A DNA stretch of 64,000 nt from Candidatus Woesearchaeota archaeon (GCA_038891615.1 JAWADY010000001.1:170952-234951), one strand, 5' to 3'. Counted from the stretch's first letter, positions 21,014 to 64,000 are shown. Made by a program: numbers and translations. The notes: generated by a model from the letters alone, not told the origin.

Positions 21014-22612
21014 TCAGGTCAAAAACTGCTCCAATCTTACATTTAATTCTAAAGCACCTGAAAAAGAATATCTAAAAAATGGTAGTCTATAGGTGTTAAG
21101 TATGAAGCCCATCTCCCTTAGTACATCCTTGGGCTGCATTGGCCCTTTCTTATAAAAGCTTATCATATCTCCTCCATCAAAAACCTCGAACAATTTTTCC
21201 TTTGTTTCCATTACCTGTTTTAACTCGTCATTGTAAAGGTCGCTCAAACCTCTTACAAAATAGCGCTTGTATGAAGGCTTTGTAAAGATGTCGCGTACAA
21301 AATCATCAAATGCGCATGAAAAAGCTACCCTAAATCTCGTAGGCATTCCACAACTTTTGTATATCGTATCCTCAGCAATGCAAAAATCATCAACTGCCTT
21401 TTTGCTTTCCTTGAGATAACTAAGCAAGAACTCTATGCTAAACTGAGAATTTTTCCAGCCGTAGTTCCAAAATCTCACATAATTTTTTCCAAACATAAAA
21501 AAATTTTTTGCATGGCTGGGGTCTAGTGCTATCAGGCTTCCAAAAAGCTCATCTGAGCGTTGCCGCTGAAGGGAATTGGCAAGCAGCAGAGAATCCGCAA
21601 TTTTTAGTACAAAACGCTTGAACTGCTCTATTGCTTTTTCCTGATTCTGAAAGAACCTCTCTACATCGACCATTATTGTTGATTGACCACAAATGAGCCC
21701 AGGAATGTGTCCCTGCATTTCTTTCTCATAGAGTAACCATTCGTTTTCAGAAAAGGTGTACGGTCCAGCCTTGCCAACAAAATATGGCGCCTGATAGCAG
21801 TTTTGGTTCTTTATGTAAAGGCTTTCATTGTGTCTGGAGTAAAGCTGCACAAGCTTTTCGAAAAAATCAGAATGCTCATAAAATTCCTTTAGTTGGGTGT
21901 CAAAAACAAAGGTTATGTTTCTATTTTTCTGTTGAAGAAGCAAAGAAATAAGTTTAAGTATTGGCTCGCCCTTTGTCACATTTGTCATGTCGATAATGTA
22001 GCATATCTTTTTACCATAGTCATCACATTTTGCATTGAGCTTTGTCACAAACGGTGCAAGCAATTGGGTCTCTGATTTTTGGACCATGACTTCAAAATCG
22101 TTTACTGCAATAACATCATTGACAACACCAAAACATCCATTGATGGCATGCCATAGCCCTTTAGGGCTCTTGAATAGCGATGCCTCAAGCAGAACACTGT
22201 TTAGCCTATCAATCCACGTTGTTGCCTCTAATTTATATATAATTCCCTTTTGTTCATAGCCTTCTACTGGCATGGGAGGAGTTATTGGTCGGGTGACAGT
22301 AATGTTATCAAAGTGTGGCACCTCTACCCCAGCCACAATTGCAAAGCTTTTTTCTTTGTTTTTACCTTCCTTTGTTATCCTTATGTAGCCTTCAAGAACA
22401 AGTTTGTTAAGATAGTAAAGAATGCGCCTGTGCAATTGTGCCTTACGTCTTTTTGCTTGCTTTTGTCTTTCAACATCACTAGAAATAAGCAATCTTTCAA
22501 TCTCGTCATATCCTGGGGTTAGCTTCTCTACAATCTCTGTTGTAGAGAATTCCTTTTCAGGATTCTTTGCTAAAAGTTCTAATATTGATGTTTCAAAATC
22601 TCCTTTACGCAT
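21014..22612 (-). CDS. hypothetical 532-aa protein with N-terminal winged-helix-like segment, co-operonic with ThyA-like gene
   Basis: Long ORF with no recognisable catalytic motif. It ends 7 nt upstream of the ThyA-like start. Confidence 0.5.
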   Translation of the reverse strand: MRKGDFETSILELLAKNPEKEFSTTEIVEKLTPGYDEIERLLISSDVERQKQAKRRKAQLHRRILYYLNKLVLEGYIRITKEGKNKEKSFAIVAGVEVPHFDNITVTRPITPPMPVEGYEQKGIIYKLEATTWIDRLNSVLLEASLFKSPKGLWHAINGCFGVVNDVIAVNDFEVMVQKSETQLLAPFVTKLNAKCDDYGKKICYIIDMTNVTKGEPILKLISLLLQQKNRNITFVFDTQLKEFYEHSDFFEKLVQLYSRHNESLYIKNQNCYQAPYFVGKAGPYTFSENEWLLYEKEMQGHIPGLICGQSTIMVDVERFFQNQEKAIEQFKRFVLKIADSLLLANSLQRQRSDELFGSLIALDPSHAKNFFMFGKNYVRFWNYGWKNSQFSIEFLLSYLKESKKAVDDFCIAEDTIYKSCGMPTRFRVAFSCAFDDFVRDIFTKPSYKRYFVRGLSDLYNDELKQVMETKEKLFEVFDGGDMISFYKKGPMQPKDVLREMGFILNTYRLPFFRYSFSGALELNVRLEQFLT

Positions 22613-23293: not shown

Positions 23294-23435
23294 GCCTCGG
23301 TAGTCTAATGGCTAGGATAGAGCCCTGTCGACGCCAAATCCAAATTGGCCAATGGCTTTTGATGGACTAGCCTGACGCGTGGTTACGCGTTGCGACAGAC
23401 CGGCTCTGATGCGGGTTCGAATCCCGCCCGGGGCG
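23294..23435 (+). tRNA. tRNA-Asp (anticodon GTC) with 70-nt intron
   Basis: Acceptor GCCTCGG/CCGGGGC. Anticodon stem GAGCC..GGCTC. Exon loop CTGTCG + C38 (GTC anticodon, G37/C38). T-arm GCGGG-TTCGAAT-CCCGC. Discriminator G73 as in tRNA-Asp. Intron at 23331-23400. Confidence 0.7.
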
Positions 23436-23509: not shown

Positions 23510-23725
23510 ATGGAAAACTGCAACTATAACAAAACGAGGTTGCTTGCTGAAATTTTGTCAACCCTCTGGCGTCTAGAAAGAGGTGTTTACGCCGAGGATG
23601 CCAAAAAGGCGGGCCATCCTCTTTGTGGCAAGCTTTACGAGGATCTTGCCAAAGACCTGAGAAAATACAAAGAAAAGCTGATAGCTGCGATTGAAGGACT
23701 ATCAAAAGAAGGAAAGTTCAAATAA
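23510..23725 (+). CDS. hypothetical small protein (71 aa)
   Basis: ATG preceded by GAGAGGTGA. The ORF-track start at 23390 overlaps tRNA-Asp and was rejected. Confidence 0.35.
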   Translation: MENCNYNKTRLLAEILSTLWRLERGVYAEDAKKAGHPLCGKLYEDLAKDLRKYKEKLIAAIEGLSKEGKFK

Positions 23726-23813: not shown

Positions 23814-24245
23814 TCATGGCAGCTTACAGCCGCTTTTGGAAGCCAATTGAGCAAAGGTTTGCTCACCACTAACCCTGCTACCATCCCCAAACACCCAAGT
23901 TGGATAAGCCATTATTCCAGCTTTGGTACATTCTTTTGTCTGACCTCTTTCGTTAGGAATTGCGCACTCGACATAGTTAATATATTTCCAGCTCTCACCA
24001 AACATTGCTTTTTGGTTCTGGCAATGGGGGCACCAATAAGCGCCATACATTTTTACACCAGAATCTGTCAAGCATTTTGCAAAGATGTCAAGCGGTGACA
24101 TGCTTGTTTCGCCTACGACAGCTCCTCCAGTAGCAGTGCTTCTTGCACAACCAACAAGGATAAACGCAGCTAAAAGAGTAATAAAAACAAACACAAATAG
24201 GGTTGGATAAACACGATAAGTTCTTTTTTGAAGAGTTGATTCCAT
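23814..24245 (-). CDS. thioredoxin-fold thiol:disulfide oxidoreductase, membrane/lipid-anchored (CPHC active site)
   Basis: N-terminal TM/signal with lipobox-like LVGCARS. YGAYWCPHCQNQK is the thioredoxin-fold CxxC active site. Confidence 0.6.
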   Translation of the reverse strand: MESTLQKRTYRVYPTLFVFVFITLLAAFILVGCARSTATGGAVVGETSMSPLDIFAKCLTDSGVKMYGAYWCPHCQNQKAMFGESWKYINYVECAIPNERGQTKECTKAGIMAYPTWVFGDGSRVSGEQTFAQLASKSGCKLP

Positions 24246-24371
24246 ATCTTCACCTCTAATCAGACCTTTGTATATTGTTAGATTGTTGTTTATGTATTCC
24301 CCTTATTTTTAGCAGGTAATGTAACATTTAATAATTTTTCGCTTGCATGATGTACAAATCAAATTTTAAAT

Positions 24372-24515
24372 TTAAACAAATTTTAAATTTAAATATATCA
24401 ATATTGCCACAAAGATTATGATGACAAACAAAATTCGCAAAGTTGGGTTGCGACTTTGAAATTTATCTTTCATTTGCTTTTCACTAACGCCTTTATGACC
24501 TGCACAACAATCCAT
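24372..24515 (-). CDS. small membrane protein (47 aa) with N-terminal MDCCAGHKG Cys-Cys-x-x-His motif; not in ORF track
   Basis: ATG preceded by AGGAGAGGTG. A single C-terminal TM helix (LRILFVIIIFVAILIYL). Confidence 0.3.
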   Translation of the reverse strand: MDCCAGHKGVSEKQMKDKFQSRNPTLRILFVIIIFVAILIYLNLKFV

Positions 24516-24656
24516 CTTGGCACCTCTCCTTCATTTTATTTAAAATTGTTCTTTGCGGACCTTATTGCTCAAAACAACATTCCAAAACCTCTTTAAGGGT
24601 TTTCTTAACTTTTTTCTTCAAACCACCAAGCTTTTTTGCAAGCTCTTCAATCACTT

Positions 24657-25088
24657 TTAGACCTCGCTTGAAACTTTTTCATCCAATGATTGAAGCAGCC
24701 AGAAAAGACCGTAAAGGTCAAAAGCTGCCCGCTCGAATTCATAAGCAGTGTCATTGGACTTTCCAATGTATTTTGTAGCAACTTCCATCAATCTCATTGT
24801 TGCTGCAAGCAGGTGCTTGCTAATGCACCATAGCTCACCCTCACGATTATGAACCAATTCACCGAGCATCTTTATCCTAAGTTTGCGGACAGCAGCGAGA
24901 ATTTCAAGGTAATGCTTTCTCTTTGTCTTCATTGCAGTAAAGGCAAGATGTTCTTCGAGGCTTATCAAGTTCATCACAGCTATTGAAAGATCTTGACGAT
25001 GAGTCAAGTCGGCCTTTTCGATATCGGCTTTCTTTTTCCTGCCTTGAGCCGAGGCTACTTTTGTCCTTTGTGTCATCCTTTGTATCAT
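24657..25088 (-). CDS. hypothetical cytoplasmic protein
   Basis: 143-aa ORF whose start overlaps the upstream gene stop by 4 nt (operon geometry). No recognisable motif. Confidence 0.4.
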   Translation of the reverse strand: MIQRMTQRTKVASAQGRKKKADIEKADLTHRQDLSIAVMNLISLEEHLAFTAMKTKRKHYLEILAAVRKLRIKMLGELVHNREGELWCISKHLLAATMRLMEVATKYIGKSNDTAYEFERAAFDLYGLFWLLQSLDEKVSSEV

Positions 25089-25603
25089 GCTGCCACCCCG
25101 AATAGACGTAAAGCTAAGACAGTTACGAGCAGCGCCGTTAGCATAAAGGCAAGCCCTTGCAACGGCATAAAATTCTTACCCCTGTTAAGTCTGCGCACAA
25201 CATGATGTAGCCAAAACGCACCACTGGTTGTTGCAGAACCAATGACAACCCCTGCTAGCAGGTAAGGCATTCCAAAGAGGGTTCCTGAAGAGTTGAAGAG
25301 CTTTGCAAAATGCAAGGTTAGTGTTGTCAAAAGAATGCTTAAAAGTGTCAAAATAGCTGACTGAAAAGGAATGTTCCAACCACGCTTTTTCATTGCATTG
25401 CTTGTCCAGAGCCCAATAGATACTGCAAGAGCTCCGATAAAAACGCCAAAAATGCTGTCATGTATTCCATAAAATCTTGCAGTAGTTACAGCGCCAACTG
25501 CTGCCACAGCACATAAAGGGCAATGTGCAAAAGCCGAAGGGACGGTTGCCAGGACCATGGATGCACCAATTATGGCAATCCTGCTTATGTTCATTCTCAG
25601 CAT
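25085..25603 (-). CDS. integral membrane protein with CPLC motif at start of first TM segment (possible thiol-redox/metal-handling membrane component)
   Basis: 172 aa. Signal/TM then AHCPLCAVAAVGAV. About 4-5 TM helices. Confidence 0.45.
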   Translation of the reverse strand: MLRMNISRIAIIGASMVLATVPSAFAHCPLCAVAAVGAVTTARFYGIHDSIFGVFIGALAVSIGLWTSNAMKKRGWNIPFQSAILTLLSILLTTLTLHFAKLFNSSGTLFGMPYLLAGVVIGSATTSGAFWLHHVVRRLNRGKNFMPLQGLAFMLTALLVTVLALRLFGVAA

Positions 25604-26175
25604 CCTCCTGTTCCTGAATCAGCTCCGCCTGGATAGAATACCTCCTTCCACTTGTTTATCTCAGCCTGTATTTGTTCACGAGTGTAGCCCTTTGTAACAA
25701 GCAACTTTGCAAGGCCGTAAAGTGCAACGTGATGACCACATTCACAGTTGTTGCTTGCCTGCAGTGTTGTAAAGCCGCAGCAAGGAAGTCTCACATCAAG
25801 CCCAACAATTTTCTTTGTCTGTTCAGAGTTCAACTTTATGCTTTTCGCATAATCAATAAGCTTAGCGTATCCTGCTGAATCATAGCTTATTCCATATTCT
25901 GACATCTCACCAGAACCTTGTGGAGAAGCATCATGCGATGTTGGCTCAATCCCACATCCACCAACACCCGTCGTAGCACCTGTTGAAACAGAAGCTGCGG
26001 AATTAGCCGATTTTCCATGATGGACTTCCATCATTTCTTCATATGAAGAATAACCGTGGTAAAGCCCAGAAGCGCTGCTTCCAGATTTGGTTGATTTGCT
26101 AATCCAGACAACTGTTCCAAAAAGCGCTATTGCTAGGAGAAGGACTATCAACACTCCAATTGTTTTGTTAGACAT
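25597..26175 (-). CDS. N-terminally anchored secreted Cys/His-rich protein
   Basis: 192 aa. TM anchor. Motifs GGCG, LPCCGF, NCECGHH and C-terminal GTGGC. Overlaps the downstream gene by 7 nt. Confidence 0.45.
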   Translation of the reverse strand: MSNKTIGVLIVLLLAIALFGTVVWISKSTKSGSSASGLYHGYSSYEEMMEVHHGKSANSAASVSTGATTGVGGCGIEPTSHDASPQGSGEMSEYGISYDSAGYAKLIDYAKSIKLNSEQTKKIVGLDVRLPCCGFTTLQASNNCECGHHVALYGLAKLLVTKGYTREQIQAEINKWKEVFYPGGADSGTGGC

Positions 26176-26302
26176 TTTTATTTTACATTACACCTCCGAG
26201 CTAAATAATCTGAAAAGGCAAAGGATTGAAACACCATATATTAATTTCGGTGAAACTAGTTTCAAAGGAATTTTAAGTTTCTAAGCTTTATAACAGGCAA
26301 AT

Positions 26303-26815
26303 TTAGAAGCTTTGGACTTGATGTTTCAATATAACAACATTGGTCATCCCCCTACGCCTTCGCTCGACAAGCCCCTTTGCCTCAAGCTTATCAAGAAGCC
26401 TAGTAATCTTCACCTTTGACATCTGCAGCTTGTCAACAAGTTCGTTCTGGAAGAGCATTCCATTCGAATCTTTAAGAAGGTTGTAAAGTGCCAGCTCATC
26501 GCCACCAAGCTCCTTTGCAGCATTTCTTGCACTTGCCGCAACAATCTCTTCAGGTCTCTTTTTAAAGAAGAGATACATCCCTATGCTAAAAAAAACAACA
26601 AGTACGAATGAACCTAGGTATTTAGGCAGCGAGAGTCTATTTATTTGTTCATAAGGGCATATTGTGTTAGGCTCATGAATGCAATTGCCCTGCTCATCAA
26701 ATCTTGCCTGCGAAAGAATAAAGGATTCTGTCTGCTTGACGTAGACCCCTCCAACTACCATAGTAATGAGTGAAAAAAGCATTATTACAAACCCCAACTG
26801 CTTATATCCTAGCAT
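26303..26815 (-). CDS. membrane-tethered winged-helix (MarR/TrmB-like) transcription regulator with extracytoplasmic Cys pair
   Basis: TM1, then a loop with CIHEPNTICPY, then TM2, then wHTH (LYNLLKDSNGMLFQNELVDKLQMSKVKITRLLDKLEAKGLVERRRRG). Confidence 0.55.
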   Translation of the reverse strand: MLGYKQLGFVIMLFSLITMVVGGVYVKQTESFILSQARFDEQGNCIHEPNTICPYEQINRLSLPKYLGSFVLVVFFSIGMYLFFKKRPEEIVAASARNAAKELGGDELALYNLLKDSNGMLFQNELVDKLQMSKVKITRLLDKLEAKGLVERRRRGMTNVVILKHQVQSF

Positions 26816-26858
26816 GCATTTATATTACGAATGACGATTTTTAAAGGTTGCTGTTCAT

Positions 26859-27005: not shown

Positions 27006-30000
27006 TCACACAGTAACTAAATTTCCAGCAACTAACTCTGCTTGTTTTAAAACGGTTTCTGTTGCTTTTTTTTCTTTATCAGGCGGATAGCCATATTTTC
27101 TCAGTATTTTCTTTACTTTGAGGCGCAACTCTGCTTGAACACTTTCTCTTTGTGTCCAGTCTATTGTAACACTTTTTCTTATCATTTGTGTTAGTTCGAG
27201 TGCTATTTTTCTTAAGGTTTCGTCACCAAGTATTTTAACTGCGCTATCATTGGCTTCAAGTGCATCATAAAATGCAAGTTCATCTTCACTCATTCCAAGC
27301 TCTTTTCCCCTGTTTTTTTCTTCTCTAACTTTTCGTGCTAACTCTATTAATTCTTCTACAGCTTGCGCAGCCTCTATAGTCCTATTTGTATATTTCTTTA
27401 TTGTTTTATCCAGCATCTCCATGAAAGATTTGCCTCGAACAAGGTTTCTTTTTGAAATTATTTTAATCTCATCATTCAATAATTTTTTAAGAGCTTCAAA
27501 CGCGAGGTTTTTCTGAGGCATATCTCTTACTTCAGCTAGAAAACGCTCTGATAAAATTGAAAGTTCTGGTTTTTTAATTCCAGCAGCCTCAAATATATCT
27601 ATAATTCTATCAGAGATTACTGCCTTTGAAATAATCTGTTTGATTGCTGTTTCATATTCTTCTATTACATCTTTTTTGGTTTCGAGTTTTTTTGACATTG
27701 TTAATTTTAATGTCTGAAAAAAGCCAACTTCTTCCTTAATCTTCATGGCTTTTTCATGAGGAAATGACAAAGATAATGCTTTTACAAGAGCTGTTGCTTC
27801 TTTTCTAAATCTTTCTTTTTTCCCTGGCTCTTTTAGTATGTATTCCATTGCATTTAGCATGAAAGGAAATTTTTCTTTTGGCGAAAGCTCGAAAAATTTC
27901 TTGTAATTAAAACCATAAAACATATCTTTAACTATCTCATATTTTTCTAACATTAATTTGACAGCCTCTTCTTGGTCCAATATTGGCTTTCCTTTACCGC
28001 CACTTAGTGTATAATCCATAAGTGCTTTTTTAAGTTCAGCTCCAACACCCATATAGTCGACAATCAGACCACCTTCCTTTCCAGGATAAACCCGATTCAC
28101 TCTTGCTATTGCCTGCATTAGAGTATGACCTTTTATTGGCTTATCAAGATACATTGTATGCAGAGATGGCGCATCGAACCCTGTCAAGAACATATCTCTT
28201 ACGATAAGGAGTTTGATTTCATGTTTTGGGTCCCTAAAATTATCCCCTATTCTCTTTCTTCTTTCTTTGTTTCTTATATGCTGCTGCCATTCTTTCGGGT
28301 CAGAAGCAGAGCCTGTTATTACGACTTTAATAAATCCTTTATCATCGTCATCATTATGCCACTCTGGCCTTAGTTTTATTATCTCGTTATAAAGGTCAAT
28401 GCATATTCTTCTCGACATACAAACAATCATTCCTTTTCCATCAAGGACAGAAAGCCTTTGCTCAAAATGATTTACAATGTCTTCTGCAATCCTTCTTATT
28501 CTTTTAGGAGCGCCCGCAACCTTTTCAAGACTTGCCCATTTACTTTTAAGTTTTTCTTTATGCTCTACCTCTTCGCCTTCTGTTACCTCCTCGAACTCTG
28601 GATCAATCTTTGGTCTTTCTTCTGGTTTTAACTCCAGCTTTGCTAATCTGCTTTCGTAAAATATTCCTACAGTAGCACCATCATTAATAGCTTGTTCAAT
28701 ATCATAAATATCAACATATTTTCCAAATACAGCAGGGGTTGATCTATCCTCTTTTTCTATTGGCGTTCCAGTAAAGCCAATGAATGACGCATTGGGCAAA
28801 GCATCTCTTAAGTACTTTGCATAACCATATGTTATAAGCACCTTATCTTCTTTTTTCAGTATTCTTGCAGGAAAACCATATTGGCTTCTATGAGCTTCAT
28901 CCGCTATTACAATAATATTGTCTCGCTCTGATAGAGTAGGATACTTTTCTCTATCATCTTTTGTTTCTGGAAAGAATTTTTGTATAGTAGTAAAAATAAT
29001 TCCGCCAGAAGCAACTTTAAGTAATTCCATCAGTTCTTTTCTTGTGCTTGCTTGAACTGGTTCTTGTCTTAATATGTCTTGACACTTGATAAAAGTTCCA
29101 AATAATTGGTCATCAAGGTCATTTCTGTCTGTAAGAACAACAATCGTAGGATTATCCAGTTGTCTAATAATTTTTCCAGCGTAAAAAATCATTGTCAAAC
29201 TTTTTCCAGAACCCTGAGTGTGCCACACAATACCTGCCTTTTTATTTGTCCTTCTTGCCTGCAAGGTTGATTCTACTGCTTTATTTGCAGCCCAATACTG
29301 GTGATATGCTGCTAATTTCTTTTTTGTTTCTTTATCTTTTTCAAAAACAATAAAGTTTCTTACGATATCTAAAAGCTTGTCTTTGTCAAGCATGCCTCTA
29401 AGCAAGATTTCTATTTCTGATAGCCCTTTCATCGGTTTTTCTCCTTCTATTGTTTTCCACTGCATAAACCTCTCTGGCTCAGAAGTAATCGTGCCTGCTC
29501 TTGCATCCATGCCATCGCTAATAACTAAAATTTCGTTATATTTGAACAAAGAAGGTATCTGTTCTTTATATGTTTGAAATTGATTATATGCTGTCCAGAT
29601 TGTTGCATCTTTATCTGCAGGGTTTTTTAACTCTATAACAACCAAAGGCAAGCCATTAACAAACAACACAATATCTGGCCTTCTTTCAGCATTGTTTTCT
29701 ATTACTGTAAACTGGTTGACTGCAAGAAAATCATTATTTTTTATATCTTCAAAATCGAACAAATTAATCAAAACGTGCCTTTCTTCACCTGCTTTTGCTA
29801 TAGGAATGCTGATACCATCTGTAAGCATCCTATGAAAGGTTTCATTGTCAACAAGCAACTTTTGGCTTCCTATTCTCAAGACTTCCTTTATAGCCTGCTC
29901 TCTCACCTCTTCTGAAACCTGCGGATTAATCCTTCTCAAAGCTTCTCTTAATCTATCAACAAGCACAACATCTTCATATCTCTGCCTTAGAGCATATTTT

Positions 30001-30110
30001 CCACCTGGTAAGTAATCCTCATTATTTCCCCTGATTACTTCATAGCCAAGGCTGCCCAAAACTGACAAAGCAAATTCTTCAACATCCGATTCATGGATTG
30101 CTTTTATCAT
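27006..30110 (-). CDS. hsdR: Type I restriction enzyme R subunit
   Basis: 1034 aa. Walker [17 protein letters not shown] box [11 protein letters not shown], HsdR N-terminal nuclease region. Confidence 0.9.
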
Positions 30111-30511
30111 TTCATCATCTTCTTAAATTTCAAGATTAAATTTTTCAATTGTTCCACAACAACCTCTGCTTCTTCCTTTTCAAGCTTTTTTCCATAATAA
30201 TTTACAGCGTTTCTAGTTTTTCTTAAATTATCAAAAATGTCAGCTTCCCTAGATAAATTTAATATTTCTTTTAGAAAAGCTGTGTAGCATTCATGATTAT
30301 AAATTTTGAATCCTTTTTTAATAGGCAATGCTTCTAAAATCTCCCTTAATGAATCGTACAATAAAGAAATTTTGCTTATAAGAAATTCATCAGCCAAAGA
30401 ATCAGTAGAGTTAAATTTTATTTCTGCTGTTTCTAATAAAGATATTATCATATTTTTATCCTCTTTCGTCTCTTTTGCAATTCTTTGTTTTAAGCATTCT
30501 CTCCAGTCCAT
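30107..30511 (-). CDS. HEPN-like protein, putative partner of the adjacent MNT
   Basis: 134 aa, all-alpha. [12 protein letters not shown] resembles the HEPN Rx4-6H box, but His appears replaced. Gene order and 2-nt spacing after the MNT gene are typical of MNT-HEPN modules. Confidence 0.45.
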
Positions 30512-30512
30512 C

Positions 30513-31025
30513 TTACCAGTTCCCTTTTATTTTGAAACCATTTAATATATTTTTAAGCAAATTTTCACTTTTTACATCTTCAATTCCTCTAAAAACAAAA
30601 ATCTGTATTCTCCTTTTTAGCAATTTTTCAAATTTCTCAAGATTAATTTCTTTTTTCGTTGGTGTAAAAATTGCAAGATCAATATCAGAATCAATCTTTG
30701 CTTCTCCTTTTGACAAAGAGCCAAAAAGATAAACTATTGGAGTTAATAAATTCTTTTCCAATTCTTTCAATAAGCCGGAATCTTCTAATATTTTTTTCCA
30801 ATAAATTCTTGATAACTCTACGAAAAGCTCAGAATCCTTATTTACAAAATAATAATTATAAATCTTCTCTTTTTCTTTTTTGAGCAAGCCTTCTTTATAC
30901 AAGTTTTCAAGAATCTTTGAAGCTGTCGGCGGGCTTATTTTTTGAATTCTTGCATACTCGCGAACATTAATCCGACTATAGCAATCTTCAAAGAAAGGCT
31001 TCAAAGTGTTAAATATTTCTAACAT
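30513..31025 (-). CDS. minimal nucleotidyltransferase (MNT) with N-terminal wHTH
   Basis: LFGSLSKGEAKIDSDIDLAIF is the GS..DxD pol-beta NTase motif. N-terminal REYARIQKISPPTASKILENL HTH-like segment. Confidence 0.65.
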   Translation of the reverse strand: MLEIFNTLKPFFEDCYSRINVREYARIQKISPPTASKILENLYKEGLLKKEKEKIYNYYFVNKDSELFVELSRIYWKKILEDSGLLKELEKNLLTPIVYLFGSLSKGEAKIDSDIDLAIFTPTKKEINLEKFEKLLKRRIQIFVFRGIEDVKSENLLKNILNGFKIKGNW

Positions 31026-61337: not shown

Positions 61338-62132
61338 CTAATTTTTTCTCAACAATAGCCAAAGTCCTACAATAAAAAGAGGGATGTTCAAAAGCTGGCC
61401 CATAGTGAATGGTCCAATGAATATTTCTGGAACCCTAAAAAGTTCTGTTATGAACCTAAAAACAGAGTACATCACTAAAAAAAGTGCAAATGCCGCTCCT
61501 TTTTTGAGGCTAATGACACCTTTATTCTTTTGCAAAACAAAAAGGGTTGCAAAGATGACAATACTGTAGAGTGATTCGTAGAGCTGGCTTGGGTGCCTAA
61601 AAACAGGGTTACCAGCAGCATCAACTTCGTTGTTGAAATTCACCCCCCAAGGTAGGTTTGTTTGCCAACCATAAAGCTCACTATTGAAGAAGTTTCCAAT
61701 CCTGCCAATAGCAAGGGCAAGGGCGGCAGGTGTAACAAAAATGTCTGCTAACTCAAGAAAGCTGATGCTTTTTTTTCTTGTCAAAAGCGCACCTATAACA
61801 ATCGCTCCAATAAGCCCACCATGAAAGCTTAGCCCGCCATGCCAAACAGCAACTATCTCAACAGGGCTAGTTATTAATCCTTGGGGCAAGCCATAAACCA
61901 ACACCCAAAAAAGCCTTGCTGCTATCACCATTGCAATCACAATCCAGCTCATAAGCGCGTCAAAGTCTTCGACAGAAAGATTTTGCACCCTTCCTTTTTT
62001 CACACAAGCTCTTGCATAAAGATAAACAAAAAGAACTCCTAAAGCATAAAAAAAGCCATACCATCTTATTTTTATTGGGCCCAGGCTAAAGAAGACGGGA
62101 TTCAACTTGTTATAAAAGACCATTCTTGCCAA
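61338..62132 (-). CDS. lgt: prolipoprotein diacylglyceryl transferase (bacterial-type Lgt)
   Basis: Lgt signature AIGRIGNFFNSELYG..TNLPWGVNF. HGGLIGAIVIG and RHPSQLYES boxes. 264 aa, multi-TM. Confidence 0.8.
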   Translation of the reverse strand: MARMVFYNKLNPVFFSLGPIKIRWYGFFYALGVLFVYLYARACVKKGRVQNLSVEDFDALMSWIVIAMVIAARLFWVLVYGLPQGLITSPVEIVAVWHGGLSFHGGLIGAIVIGALLTRKKSISFLELADIFVTPAALALAIGRIGNFFNSELYGWQTNLPWGVNFNNEVDAAGNPVFRHPSQLYESLYSIVIFATLFVLQKNKGVISLKKGAAFALFLVMYSVFRFITELFRVPEIFIGPFTMGQLLNIPLFIVGLWLLLRKN

Positions 62133-62194: not shown

Positions 62195-64000
62195 TCAAAT
62201 CTTTGCCTTATAAAGCCTCATGAGCAACGAATTTGTAACAACGCTCACGGAGCTCAAAGCCATTGCTGCTGCTGCAAGAACAGGACTAAGAAGAAAGCCG
62301 GTGAATGGATAAAGTACACCAGCCGCAACCGGAACGCCCAAAGTGTTATAGAGGAATGCCCAGAAAAGGTTTTGTTTAATTTTCTTTATTGTGTACTTAC
62401 TCAAGTCTATTGCCGTGACAACATCTCGCAAGTCGTTCTTTATTAGTACGATGTTTCCTGCTTCAAGAGCAACATCTGTGCCAGCGCCTATTGCTATACC
62501 AACATCTGCTTGCGCAAGCGCAGGAGCATCGTTTATGCCATCTCCAACCATTGCAACCTTTCTACCTTGTGCTTGTAGCTTTTTTATAACCTCAACCTTT
62601 TGTCCAGGAAGAACCTCTGCCATAACCTCTTCAATGCCGAGTTGGCTGGCTATTGCCTTTGCGGTTCTGCTGTTATCCCCTGTCACCATAACAACCTTTT
62701 TTCTAAGGGCTTTCAAAGTATCAACGGCTTCTTTTGAATACTCTTTAAGTGTGTCTGCAGCTGCAACAATCCCAACAAGCTTCCTACCAACAGCAACAAG
62801 CATTGCTGTTTTTCCCTGCTCTTGAAGCTTTTCTAGTGCTCTTTCAGCCCCTTCAGAAAGCTCAATCCTTTCAGCCTTCATGAGTTGTGTTGTGCCAATA
62901 ACAATGAGTTTTCCGCCATAGCTTGCAATGACGCCTTGGCCTGGCACTGCCTTGAACTCTTTTGCATCAGGAATTTTTATTCCCATTTTAAGCGCTCCAT
63001 TTACTATTGCCTCGCCAAGTGGGTGTTCTGAGCCTTTTTCTGCAATTGCAGCAAAGGTTAGAAGCTCGCGCTCAGAAAGCTTATCCAAAGGTAGAATGTC
63101 AGAGAGTTCAGGGCTTCCCTTTGTCAGCGTTCCGGTTTTGTCAAGCACAATGGTGTCAATTTTGCAGGCAAGCTCAAGAGCCTCGCCAGATTTTATGAGT
63201 ATGCCGTGCTCTGCAGCCTTTCCTGTTCCCACCATTATTGCAGTGGGGGTAGCAAGGCCAAGAGCGCATGGGCAGGCAATTATCAAAACCGCAATGAATG
63301 TGCTTAATGCAAAAACAAATTCCTTTCCAATAATGCCATACCAAATGACAAATGAAAGAATGGCTATCAGTATCACAACAGGAACAAAATAGGCTGAAAC
63401 AAGGTCAGCAAGCCGTTGTATCGGTGCTCTGCTTGCCTGCGCATCCTCCACGAGTTTTATTATTTGTGCAAGAAGGGTTTCCTTTCCGACTTTTGTTGCC
63501 CTAAACTTTAACATTCCATGCTTGTTTATTGTTGCCCCAATTACGTGGTCTCCGGGTTTTTTCTCGACAGGAATGCTTTCTCCGGTCACCATAGATTCGT
63601 CGACTGAAGAGTGTCCTGATATGACAATTCCATCTACAGGAATCTTCTCCCCAGGCCTTACAAAGATTATATCATCTACTTGAACCTGATCAACTGGTAA
63701 CTCGAGCTCCTTTCCTCCACGAATAACTGTGGCAGTCTTTGGCTTAAGACCTATTAGCCGCTTTATCGCCTCACTTGCTTTTCCTTTTGTTATTGCCTCA
63801 AGCCATTTGCCTAGAATTATGAATGTGATGATTATTGCAGAGGTATCAAAGTAGTAATGGCCACGAAATGCTGTTGGCCAAATTACTGCAAGCAGGCTAT
63901 AGAGAAAAGCCGCGCTCGTGCCTATCGCGATAAGGCTGTCCATGTTTGCCCTTTTTGCCTTGAGTGCAATCCATGCTCCACGATAAAACCTTGCACCTAC
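62195..64000 (-). CDS. copA: copper-translocating P1B-type ATPase (5' end beyond window)
   Basis: [10 protein letters not shown] (CPC), [19 protein letters not shown] and [10 protein letters not shown] motifs. The reading frame stays open upstream to the window edge (…[21 protein letters not shown]…), so the N-terminal HMA domain and first TMs are outside the window. Confidence 0.9.

Follow-up and report, generated by a model that had tools for sequence, protein, structure and literature searches.

A conserved DPANN gene cassette with a membrane-tethered regulator and its own operator: a candidate copper and thiol-stress system of the archaeal cell envelope

Metal-responsive operons with a dedicated regulator are an already known kind of genetic system. 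In the cop locus of Sulfolobales (CopR/CopT TRASH, CopA) and in the bacterial CopY/CsoR/CueR-CopZ-CopA systems, a heavy-metal-associated (HMA) or TRASH chaperone and a Cu(I) P1B ATPase are encoded behind a metal-responsive operator. Membrane-bound one-component regulators, which unite a domain for DNA binding, membrane segments and a sensing part outside the cytoplasm in one polypeptide, include ToxR and CadC in bacteria and ArnR in Sulfolobus; CadC uses a periplasmic Cys pair. CcmH/NrfF (PF03918) is a membrane-anchored three-helix-bundle thiol oxidoreductase, exported CopG/DUF411 proteins carry clustered cysteines (CxCC) and a thioredoxin-like domain is fused to VKOR in Synechococcus (PDB entry 3kp9). 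In Salmonella, the copper-induced protein CueP, a Cys-based Cu(I) binder able to take copper from the CopA pump, cooperates with the Scs thiol oxidoreductases, the thioredoxin-fold and DsbD-like partners handling its thiols (PMC10907172). The present analysis concerns a cluster of minus-strand genes in a 64 000-nucleotide stretch of a Candidatus Woesearchaeota archaeon (GCA_038891615.1 JAWADY010000001.1:170952-234951; hereafter the window). A preliminary description had recognized six consecutive genes in it; they encode a membrane-tethered regulator (g1), a Cys-rich anchored protein (g2), a membrane protein (g3), a cytoplasmic protein (g4), a small membrane peptide (g5) and an exported thioredoxin-like protein (g6).

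The cluster is one copy of a widely conserved and previously undescribed gene cassette of the tiny DPANN archaea. Its most likely role is to protect the cell envelope from copper. The regulator architecture, the operator, three protein families and the micro-proteins are without a described counterpart. The regulon found behind the same operator in other genomes resembles the Sulfolobales and bacterial cop systems in pairing a chaperone with a Cu(I) P1B ATPase. However, the regulator family and the operator differ, the sensor is predicted to face outward and the operon in the window encodes no classical cop protein. The likeness of g1 to ToxR, CadC and ArnR lies in the joining of all three parts in one protein, and the Cys pair in its predicted extracytoplasmic loop recalls that of CadC. 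Its order, in contrast, is reversed, with two N-terminal transmembrane segments and a loop preceding a C-terminal MarR-like DUF7343 winged helix, and its putative operator brackets an archaeal TATA box.

As in the CueP/Scs system, Cys/His/Met-rich exported proteins are here co-regulated or co-located with genes for Cu(I) ATPases, thioredoxin-fold and DsbD_TM proteins. The cassette proteins nevertheless have no sequence or fold kinship with those of Salmonella. The regulator is a membrane-tethered winged-helix protein and not CueR or CpxR, cytoplasmic parts are added (g4 and peptides with vicinal cysteines, here termed CC peptides) and the archaeal host has no outer-membrane-bounded periplasm. 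Scs systems combine a DsbD-like reductase with an exported thioredoxin-fold protein, and the window has g6 alone; the cluster is thus not an Scs member, although it may work like one.

Conservation of the cassette and of its operator

All six open reading frames (ORFs) of the preliminary description are present on the minus strand, with the motifs reported for them: CPHC in g6, MDCCAGHKG in g5, CPLC (as part of HCPLC) in g3 and PCCGF..NCECGHH in g2. A profile search with g2 among species-representative genomes recovered 21 loci, all in DPANN metagenome-assembled genomes (MAGs) or in loosely labelled archaeal MAGs. Four more loci in three distinct contexts (L022–L025, L024 being a short copy of L023), including one in a Micrarchaeota MAG, were reached via g4 homologues, giving 25 related genome loci in total. 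In 18 of the 21 loci (19 of 22 with the window) g1 immediately precedes g2 in the same orientation, and g3 and g4 lie downstream of g2 in 13–14 of the 21; for the one-strand order g1-g2-g3-g4 the count is 14–19 of the 21. This order is also found in L022–L025, which were identified independently through g4.

The conserved unit consists of g1, g2, g3, g4 and a micro-ORF absent from the preliminary description, and this order recurs in Woesearchaeota, Aenigmatarchaeota and Micrarchaeota loci. Neither g5 nor g6 has an orthologue in any of these 25 loci; g6 is an accessory, genome-specific addition and g5 probably another. What recurs across loci is the class of g6, an exported thioredoxin-fold protein, rather than its orthologue. 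The proposal that the cluster forms one unit therefore holds for the core, which is co-conserved across DPANN phyla, but not for g5 and g6. Within the window g2 and g3 overlap by 7 nt and g3 and g4 by 4 nt; the micro-ORF starts 2 nt past g4, with g5 46 nt further on and g6 126 nt past g5. Shine–Dalgarno-like sequences precede every cluster gene except g1.

The operator is located in the g1–g2 intergenic region and is composed of a perfect palindrome, TGAAACTAGTTTCA, a stretch of 18 nt containing TTAATATAT, and GTTTCA, 38 bp in all. It brackets the TATA box before g2 and has a single match in the 64-kb window; the palindrome is matched neither at the g1 promoter nor elsewhere in the window. The 12-bp palindrome core is exact in 21 of the 25 archaeal loci, occurring once in each, or twice where there are two cassettes. 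With two mismatches or fewer, the operator is found in all 24 loci that contain upstream DNA. It invariably sits immediately ahead of g2 or of the small ORF that leads up to it, and in most cases the third half-site follows at 18 nt.

The leading small ORF, present between the operator and g2 in many loci, is Lys-rich or TRASH-like and ends in CC; in other loci g2 itself carries a cytoplasmic CC extension at its N-terminus. In the window a Shine–Dalgarno sequence, GGAGGTG, is followed upstream of g2 by a start–stop pair, ATG TAA (26183-26188, minus strand), and the ATG of g2 comes 7 nt on. Because other loci carry the leading CC ORF at the same position, this pair may be a remnant of it. In Aenigmatarchaeota loci L017–L021 a second type of cassette, without g3 or g4, stands behind the same operator; it comprises a short g2, a DsbA-like protein, a class V aminotransferase (SufS-like), a membrane protein with 14 Cys residues, a CHxxC membrane protein and an exported protein with C..HLSHHP..C.

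A scan of metagenome contigs for the pattern palindrome-N14-30-GTTTCA produced at least 120 stretches. Among the matches listed, to which all metagenome counts given here refer, the spacer is exactly 18 nt in 88 of 120, a peak that is not expected by chance, and it nearly always holds a TATA-like box. The regulon counts come from the 85 unique loci in which the spacer measures 18 nt. Of these, 71 have enough upstream DNA, and in 46 of the 71 the operator lies at the end of a g1-like gene, whose TGA stop codon often supplies the palindrome with its first three bases. The protein that binds there is most likely g1. Of 73 loci, 33 have a gene for an HMA-domain protein or a P1B ATPase as the first past the operator, and 12 have a gene for a g2-like protein in this place. 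Genes for DUF411/CopG (eight loci), cupredoxin-like, FtrD-like, DsbA-like, g3 and g4 proteins also follow it. Since the same operator precedes both, CopG/DUF411 falls into the same regulon as g2. A search of a literature library turned up no mention of the palindrome, DUF7343 or a copper regulon in DPANN archaea.

The cluster had been described as not a recognizable cop operon. This is correct for the protein families, as searches of Pfam and NCBIfam found no HMA or P-type ATPase domain in the six cluster proteins, but in other genomes the operator links the cassette, at the level of the regulon, to cop systems. All 11 P-type ATPases beside the cassette or in the window carry CPC and N..YN....P, and ten of them also carry P......MxxSS; by the P1B-1 classification, pumps for Cu(I)/Ag(I) are recognized by this signature. 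ATPases with the Cu(I) signature lie within ∼6 kb of the cassette in 14 of the 25 loci, and Met-rich anchored proteins, PadR-TRASH regulators, DsbA-like proteins and DsbD_TM proteins are frequent neighbours. The earlier suggestion of Cu, Hg or Cd handling is thus retained as a soft-metal idea with copper favoured over the other two. Likewise, the cluster is not a recognizable mer operon: MerP, MerT, MerC and MerA are unmatched in the six proteins (Pfam, NCBIfam), and no MerA or MerR family was found among the neighbour clusters of the 25 genome loci and 85 operator loci, of which the cluster representatives were scanned.

Proteins encoded by the cassette

Residues 106–163 of g1 match the Pfam family DUF7343 (PF24034) with 40.4 bits against a cut-off of 27.6. 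The protein also matches MarR_2 (34.0 against 27) and MarR, and its NCBI name is MarR family regulator. Two hydrophobic segments (about residues 4–27 and 62–86) are separated by a loop of ∼40 residues and followed by the C-terminal winged helix. The loop contains the motif C45-x-H47...C53-P, in agreement with the preliminary description, and the Cys pair is kept in 20 homologues. The gene has no Shine–Dalgarno sequence and has a TATA-like box ∼25 nt upstream, which is the pattern of a leaderless gene. This box, CCTTTAAAAA, is a putative g1 promoter element, and GCAACCTTTAAAAA is also found upstream of g1 in L004 and L009.

The g2 protein comprises an N-terminal transmembrane anchor, the segment SYEEMMEVHHG, a helical domain with PCC...CECGHH and a C-terminal GGC. 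Across homologues the first motif is conserved as SYEEMMxAHHG, and Cys132, Cys133, Cys144, Cys146, His148, His149 and the terminal Cys192 are invariant in the alignment. An AlphaFold model, confident in the C-terminal domain, predicts a helical fold for which CcmH is the best match; a Foldseek search of g2 against the PDB returned nothing. A sequence link to CcmH was rejected, as comparison with Escherichia coli CcmH and NrfF using hhalign was not significant and PF03918 was matched by none of 35 close members and by one of 125 distant members (E 1.2e-3). The protein further differs from CcmH/NrfF in having LPCC...CEC(-HH) and a C-terminal GGC in place of LRCxxC, and in the absence of a cytochrome c maturation context nearby. 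It shares with CopG/DUF411 an exported location and clustered cysteines, but it has no DUF411 match and its predicted fold is helical, not thioredoxin-like. Kinship with the PCYCGC lipoproteins (PF13798) was also rejected, with no match in the 35 close (A1) or 125 distant (A4) members.

A profile search of 1.84 billion representatives yielded 218 clusters for g2. The wider family has the signature CEYCCG...ACGCAHS...WK..FFP...VGGC-COOH and likewise lacks a Pfam model. Its domain also occurs at the C-terminus of larger exported proteins with a beta-propeller or FKBP (P0176, P0243, P0279 and L007 19-1497).

In g3 a hydrophobic leader ending in AxA is followed by an invariant H-C-P-L-C and ∼4 membrane helices; Ala26, His27, Cys28, Pro29 and Cys31 are invariant in the alignment (A5). 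The CPLC motif had been placed at the mouth of the first transmembrane helix. The motif is present, but its position after the leader suggests that HCPLC is probably the mature N-terminus, exposed outside the cell after leader cleavage. The single CPLC pair is conserved, and there is no second Cys pair, no quinone-site signature and no match to VKOR, DsbB or DsbD. A weak match to DUF5904 (E 4.5e-4) was found in one of 16 family members, was absent in the other 15 and was treated as chance. Homology with a co-occurring CHxxC membrane family of MerC size was also rejected (hhalign probability 2%). A word-indexed search recovered only one g3 relative although at least 15 are present in related loci, reflecting the limited sensitivity of that search.

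The g4 protein appears to be a cytoplasmic four-helix protein and has 1558 homologues across DPANN phyla. Its invariant residues are Glu45, His47, Trp87, Cys88, His92 and Glu102, and it has a single conserved Cys. The product of the micro-ORF that follows, VIEELAKKLGGLKKKVKKTLKEVLECCFEQ, is a Lys-rich helix with a C-terminal CCFE motif (it ends in ECCFEQ). Its start codon is GTG, with a GAGGT Shine–Dalgarno sequence 6 nt upstream. The micro-ORF comes after g4 in 16 related loci, ending in CC[FLI]E, and in L005 it is fused to the C-terminus of g4; Cys26, Cys27 and Glu29 are invariant in the alignment. It is missing from the NCBI annotation, in which g6, g4, g3, g2 and g1 bear consecutive locus tags and g5 is uncalled, and from the protein collection.

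A Shine–Dalgarno sequence, GGAGAGGTG, precedes g5. The architecture of this peptide, an N-terminal CC followed by a charged linker and a transmembrane segment, is also found fused to g2 homologues and to another membrane family of the regulon, and g5 resembles a split-off module of CC tail and transmembrane segment. In one membrane family of the regulon the CC tail alternates with an N-terminal HMA domain, suggesting that CC tails, including g5 and the CCFE peptide, may be minimal metal-binding sites. The most frequent operator target among the matches listed is an uncharacterized membrane family with the motif GL.YGLIPH.GCIAF (L057, L083, L097, L114, L117, L122 and L129), which has an N-terminal HMA domain or CC tail and a C-terminal HMA-like part with IPCPGH.

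The g6 protein has a lipobox-like LVGC, a CPHC active site and predicted export. It matches the thioredoxin-like domain of the Synechococcus VKOR fusion 3kp9 with an E value of 1.2e-21, including the active site WCPHCQ. The cluster had been described as not a recognizable dsb operon, but g6 is a recognizable Dsb-type protein. Unlike the domain in the Synechococcus fusion, g6 is a lipobox protein that stands alone; the cluster has no recognized VKOR-like partner for it, and g3 is not VKOR-like. Proteins like g6 are found downstream of the operator in three metagenome loci, and thioredoxin-fold or DsbD-type genes lie near the cassette in ten of the 25 related loci. DsbD_TM proteins are present in six related loci, whereas the window has g6 only. 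A bacterial-type prolipoprotein diacylglyceryl transferase, Lgt (PF01790, E 3e-72; 61338-62132, minus strand), directly adjoins the Cu(I) ATPase gene in the window, and an Lgt homologue is near the ATPase in L006 too; this enzyme may bear on the lipobox-like LVGC present in g6.

Genomic setting

Positions of the features in the window, counted from its first nucleotide
Feature	Position	Strand	Basis or remark
g1, regulator gene	26303-26815	-	ORF call
g2, Cys-rich anchored protein gene	25597-26175	-	ORF call
g3, HCPLC membrane protein gene	25085-25603	-	ORF call
g4, cytoplasmic helical protein gene	24657-25088	-	ORF call
Micro-ORF, 30 residues, CCFE near C-terminus	24562-24654	-	Conserved across loci, missing from annotation
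g5, 47-residue tail-anchored peptide, MDCCAGH N-terminus	24372-24515	-	ORF call
g6, exported thioredoxin-like protein gene	23814-24245	-	ORF call
Operator upstream of g2	26227-26264	-	Pattern, single match in 64 kb
TATA-like box CCTTTAAAAA of putative g1 promoter	26838-26847	-	Sequence repeated in L004 and L009
Cu(I)-type P1B ATPase, CopA-like, truncated by window end	62195-63943	-	CPC / N..YN....P / P......MxxSS signature

On one side of the cassette is a tRNA gene, on the other a type I restriction-modification locus. The tRNA gene (23294-23435, plus strand; Rfam tRNA 48.5 bits, ARAGORN silent) is located just downstream of g6 and, since it spans 142 nt, must carry an intron. Directly upstream of g1 are genes for the R subunit of a type I restriction enzyme (hsdR, 1034 residues) and a nucleotidyltransferase-domain protein with a small partner ORF (27006-31025, minus strand). 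The G+C content falls to 0.30 at 30–34 kb, suggesting a variable or mobile region. Two further ORFs are without a Pfam match: one of 71 residues (MENCNYNKTRLL...; 23510-23725, plus strand), which is convergent with g6, and one of 532 residues (21014-22612, minus strand).

Proposed function and alternative explanations

The preliminary description viewed the cluster as a module that handles thiols or soft metals outside the cytoplasm and possesses its own sensor. The co-conservation, the operator and the regulon of cop genes in other genomes support this view, except that the six genes do not form the unit. The cassette is probably, though by no means certainly, a copper (soft-metal) and thiol-stress operon of the envelope under its own membrane-tethered one-component regulator. 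In this scheme g1 would expose its Cys-x-His...Cys-Pro loop outside the cell, while its cytoplasmic winged helix would bind TGAAACTAGTTTCA-N18-GTTTCA around the TATA box of g2. The position of the half-sites on either side of the TATA box suggests that g1 is an archaeal repressor. Binding of Cu(I) to the loop thiols, or their copper-catalysed oxidation, would release the g2 promoter and induce an operon of g2, g3, g4 and the micro-ORF, probably with g5 and perhaps with g6.

Outside the cell, g2 would offer MMxxHH, the helical domain with CC...CxC-HH and the terminal GGC, and g3 its N-terminal H-C-P-L-C. Inside, the ligands would be those of g4 (Glu/His/Cys/His) and of the vicinal-cysteine peptides (the CCFE tail and the MDCC tail of g5). 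The exported sites could trap Cu(I) at the membrane surface, for example from a CopA-type ATPase, and so spare envelope thiols, with exported thioredoxin-fold proteins such as g6 holding the cysteines of g2 and g3 in the right redox state; the cooperation of CueP and Scs in Salmonella resembles this proposed action. The cytoplasmic CC peptides and g4 might buffer Cu(I) or hand it over in the manner of HMA chaperones. What the sequences demonstrate is the synteny, the operator and its association with cop genes in other genomes, whereas the topology, the identity of the metal, the repressor logic, the direction of any metal transfer and the biochemistry as a whole are inferred.

Several points weigh against this assignment. 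The topology of the cluster proteins was judged by hydropathy only. The g2 protein has no Pfam or PDB sequence family match; g4 has no Pfam domain and no significant PDB sequence match, its fold matches being those of a generic helical bundle; and the g3 family profile matches no Pfam family and no PDB entry, 3kp9 included. The family alignment of g3 reveals no conserved Cys, Met or His in its membrane helices, and because such ligands are lacking a transmembrane metal or electron relay is not evident. The metagenome operator loci were picked by the pattern itself, and a recognizable g1 is missing in 25 of 71 of them. In this genome the copA gene, the full product of which has 817 residues and an HMA domain, is 36 kb from the cassette, and the operator was searched for upstream of it and not found; the link to copper thus rests on other genomes, since copA here is distant and without the operator. 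As a separate gene, g5 has no orthologue in any locus examined and is not annotated by NCBI, and it may be neither a real gene nor expressed.

A purely thiol–disulfide pathway of the Dsb or Ccm type would make g2 a CcmH-like reductase or oxidase for exported Cys-rich proteins, g3 its membrane partner and g6 a DsbA-like oxidase, copper being an indirect inducer or irrelevant. This is unlikely overall, although CcmH is the best structural match for g2, one member of the g2 superfamily weakly matches PF03918 and g6 is homologous to the thioredoxin domain that partners VKOR. The neighbourhood lends it further support, with DsbA-like, DsbD_TM, TlpA-like and glutaredoxin-like proteins in ten of the 25 loci and the DsbA-like gene directly after g2 in L017–L021. 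However, among the matches listed the same operator most often precedes HMA proteins, Cu(I) ATPases and CopG, the Met/His motif of g2 and the co-located Met-rich proteins are not accounted for by such a pathway, and g3 has one CxxC only, with neither a quinone-site signature nor a relationship to VKOR, DsbB or DsbD. Cytochrome c maturation machinery is also not found nearby. Copper could instead be the cargo of an acquisition relay, passed inward for cuproproteins from g2 to g3 and on to g4 and the CC peptides by a logic like that of MerP-MerT-MerA or CopC-CopD. Ligand sets outside, in the membrane and inside would suit such a relay, as would the cupredoxin-like gene in the regulon, and vicinal Cys pairs at flexible termini resemble Mer hand-off sites. 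The lack of conserved metal ligands in the g3 helices argues against it, shared regulation with efflux ATPases and CopG speaks for detoxification, and few cuproenzymes are known in DPANN genomes; import is accordingly regarded as decidedly improbable.

Resistance of the mer type to mercury or another thiophilic metal (Hg, Cd, Ag or Au) is more doubtful still. CC and CxxC are typical of the tails of MerT, MerC and MerA, the separate CHxxC membrane family, roughly the size of MerC, co-occurs in 11 loci, and P1B-1 pumps export Ag(I) too. Nevertheless, neither the window proteins nor the conserved neighbour clusters, scanned by their representatives, contain a match to MerA, MerB, MerR, MerP or MerT/C, the ATPases bear signatures typical of Cu(I)/Ag(I) and not of Zn/Cd/Pb pumps, and DUF411/CopG and the cupredoxin indicate copper, leaving very little room for this explanation. 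A fortuitous neighbourhood of unrelated small Cys-containing ORFs is the least credible alternative. It could appeal to the shortness of g5 and of the micro-ORF and to the absence of g5 orthologues, but the synteny, the invariant motifs, the translational coupling and the common operator hold across phyla. For g1–g4 and the micro-ORF, chance is refuted by the comparative data; for g5 alone it is possible.

A further and more tentative proposal, which is somewhat more likely to fail than to hold, is that DPANN archaea share an undescribed copper-sensing circuit. In it, a membrane regulator with a Cys2-His loop would read copper or thiol oxidation outside the cell and directly gate a near-invariant operator that brackets the TATA box. 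The regulon would comprise three new families (g2, g3 and g4), together with a new class of vicinal-Cys micro-proteins (the CCFE tail and the N-terminal CC tails) that would serve in the cytoplasm as Cu(I) chaperones of minimal size and could be exchanged for HMA domains.

The DPANN archaea are abundant and mostly uncultured, with tiny genomes in which most conserved genes have no assigned function. The present analysis offers a testable function for g4, with more than 1500 homologues, for g2 and g3, and for a micro-protein that annotation pipelines overlook. With the 38-bp element, which different phyla have in common, a whole regulon can be mapped directly from metagenomes, and the operator–regulator pair could be a compact metal-responsive switch. 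The apparent interchange of HMA domains and two-cysteine tails would illustrate the small size to which a metallochaperone can be reduced. Should g1 indeed sense copper outside the cell and itself act on DNA, it would represent a type of metal sensor that is rare in archaea, one that is both membrane-bound and one-component.

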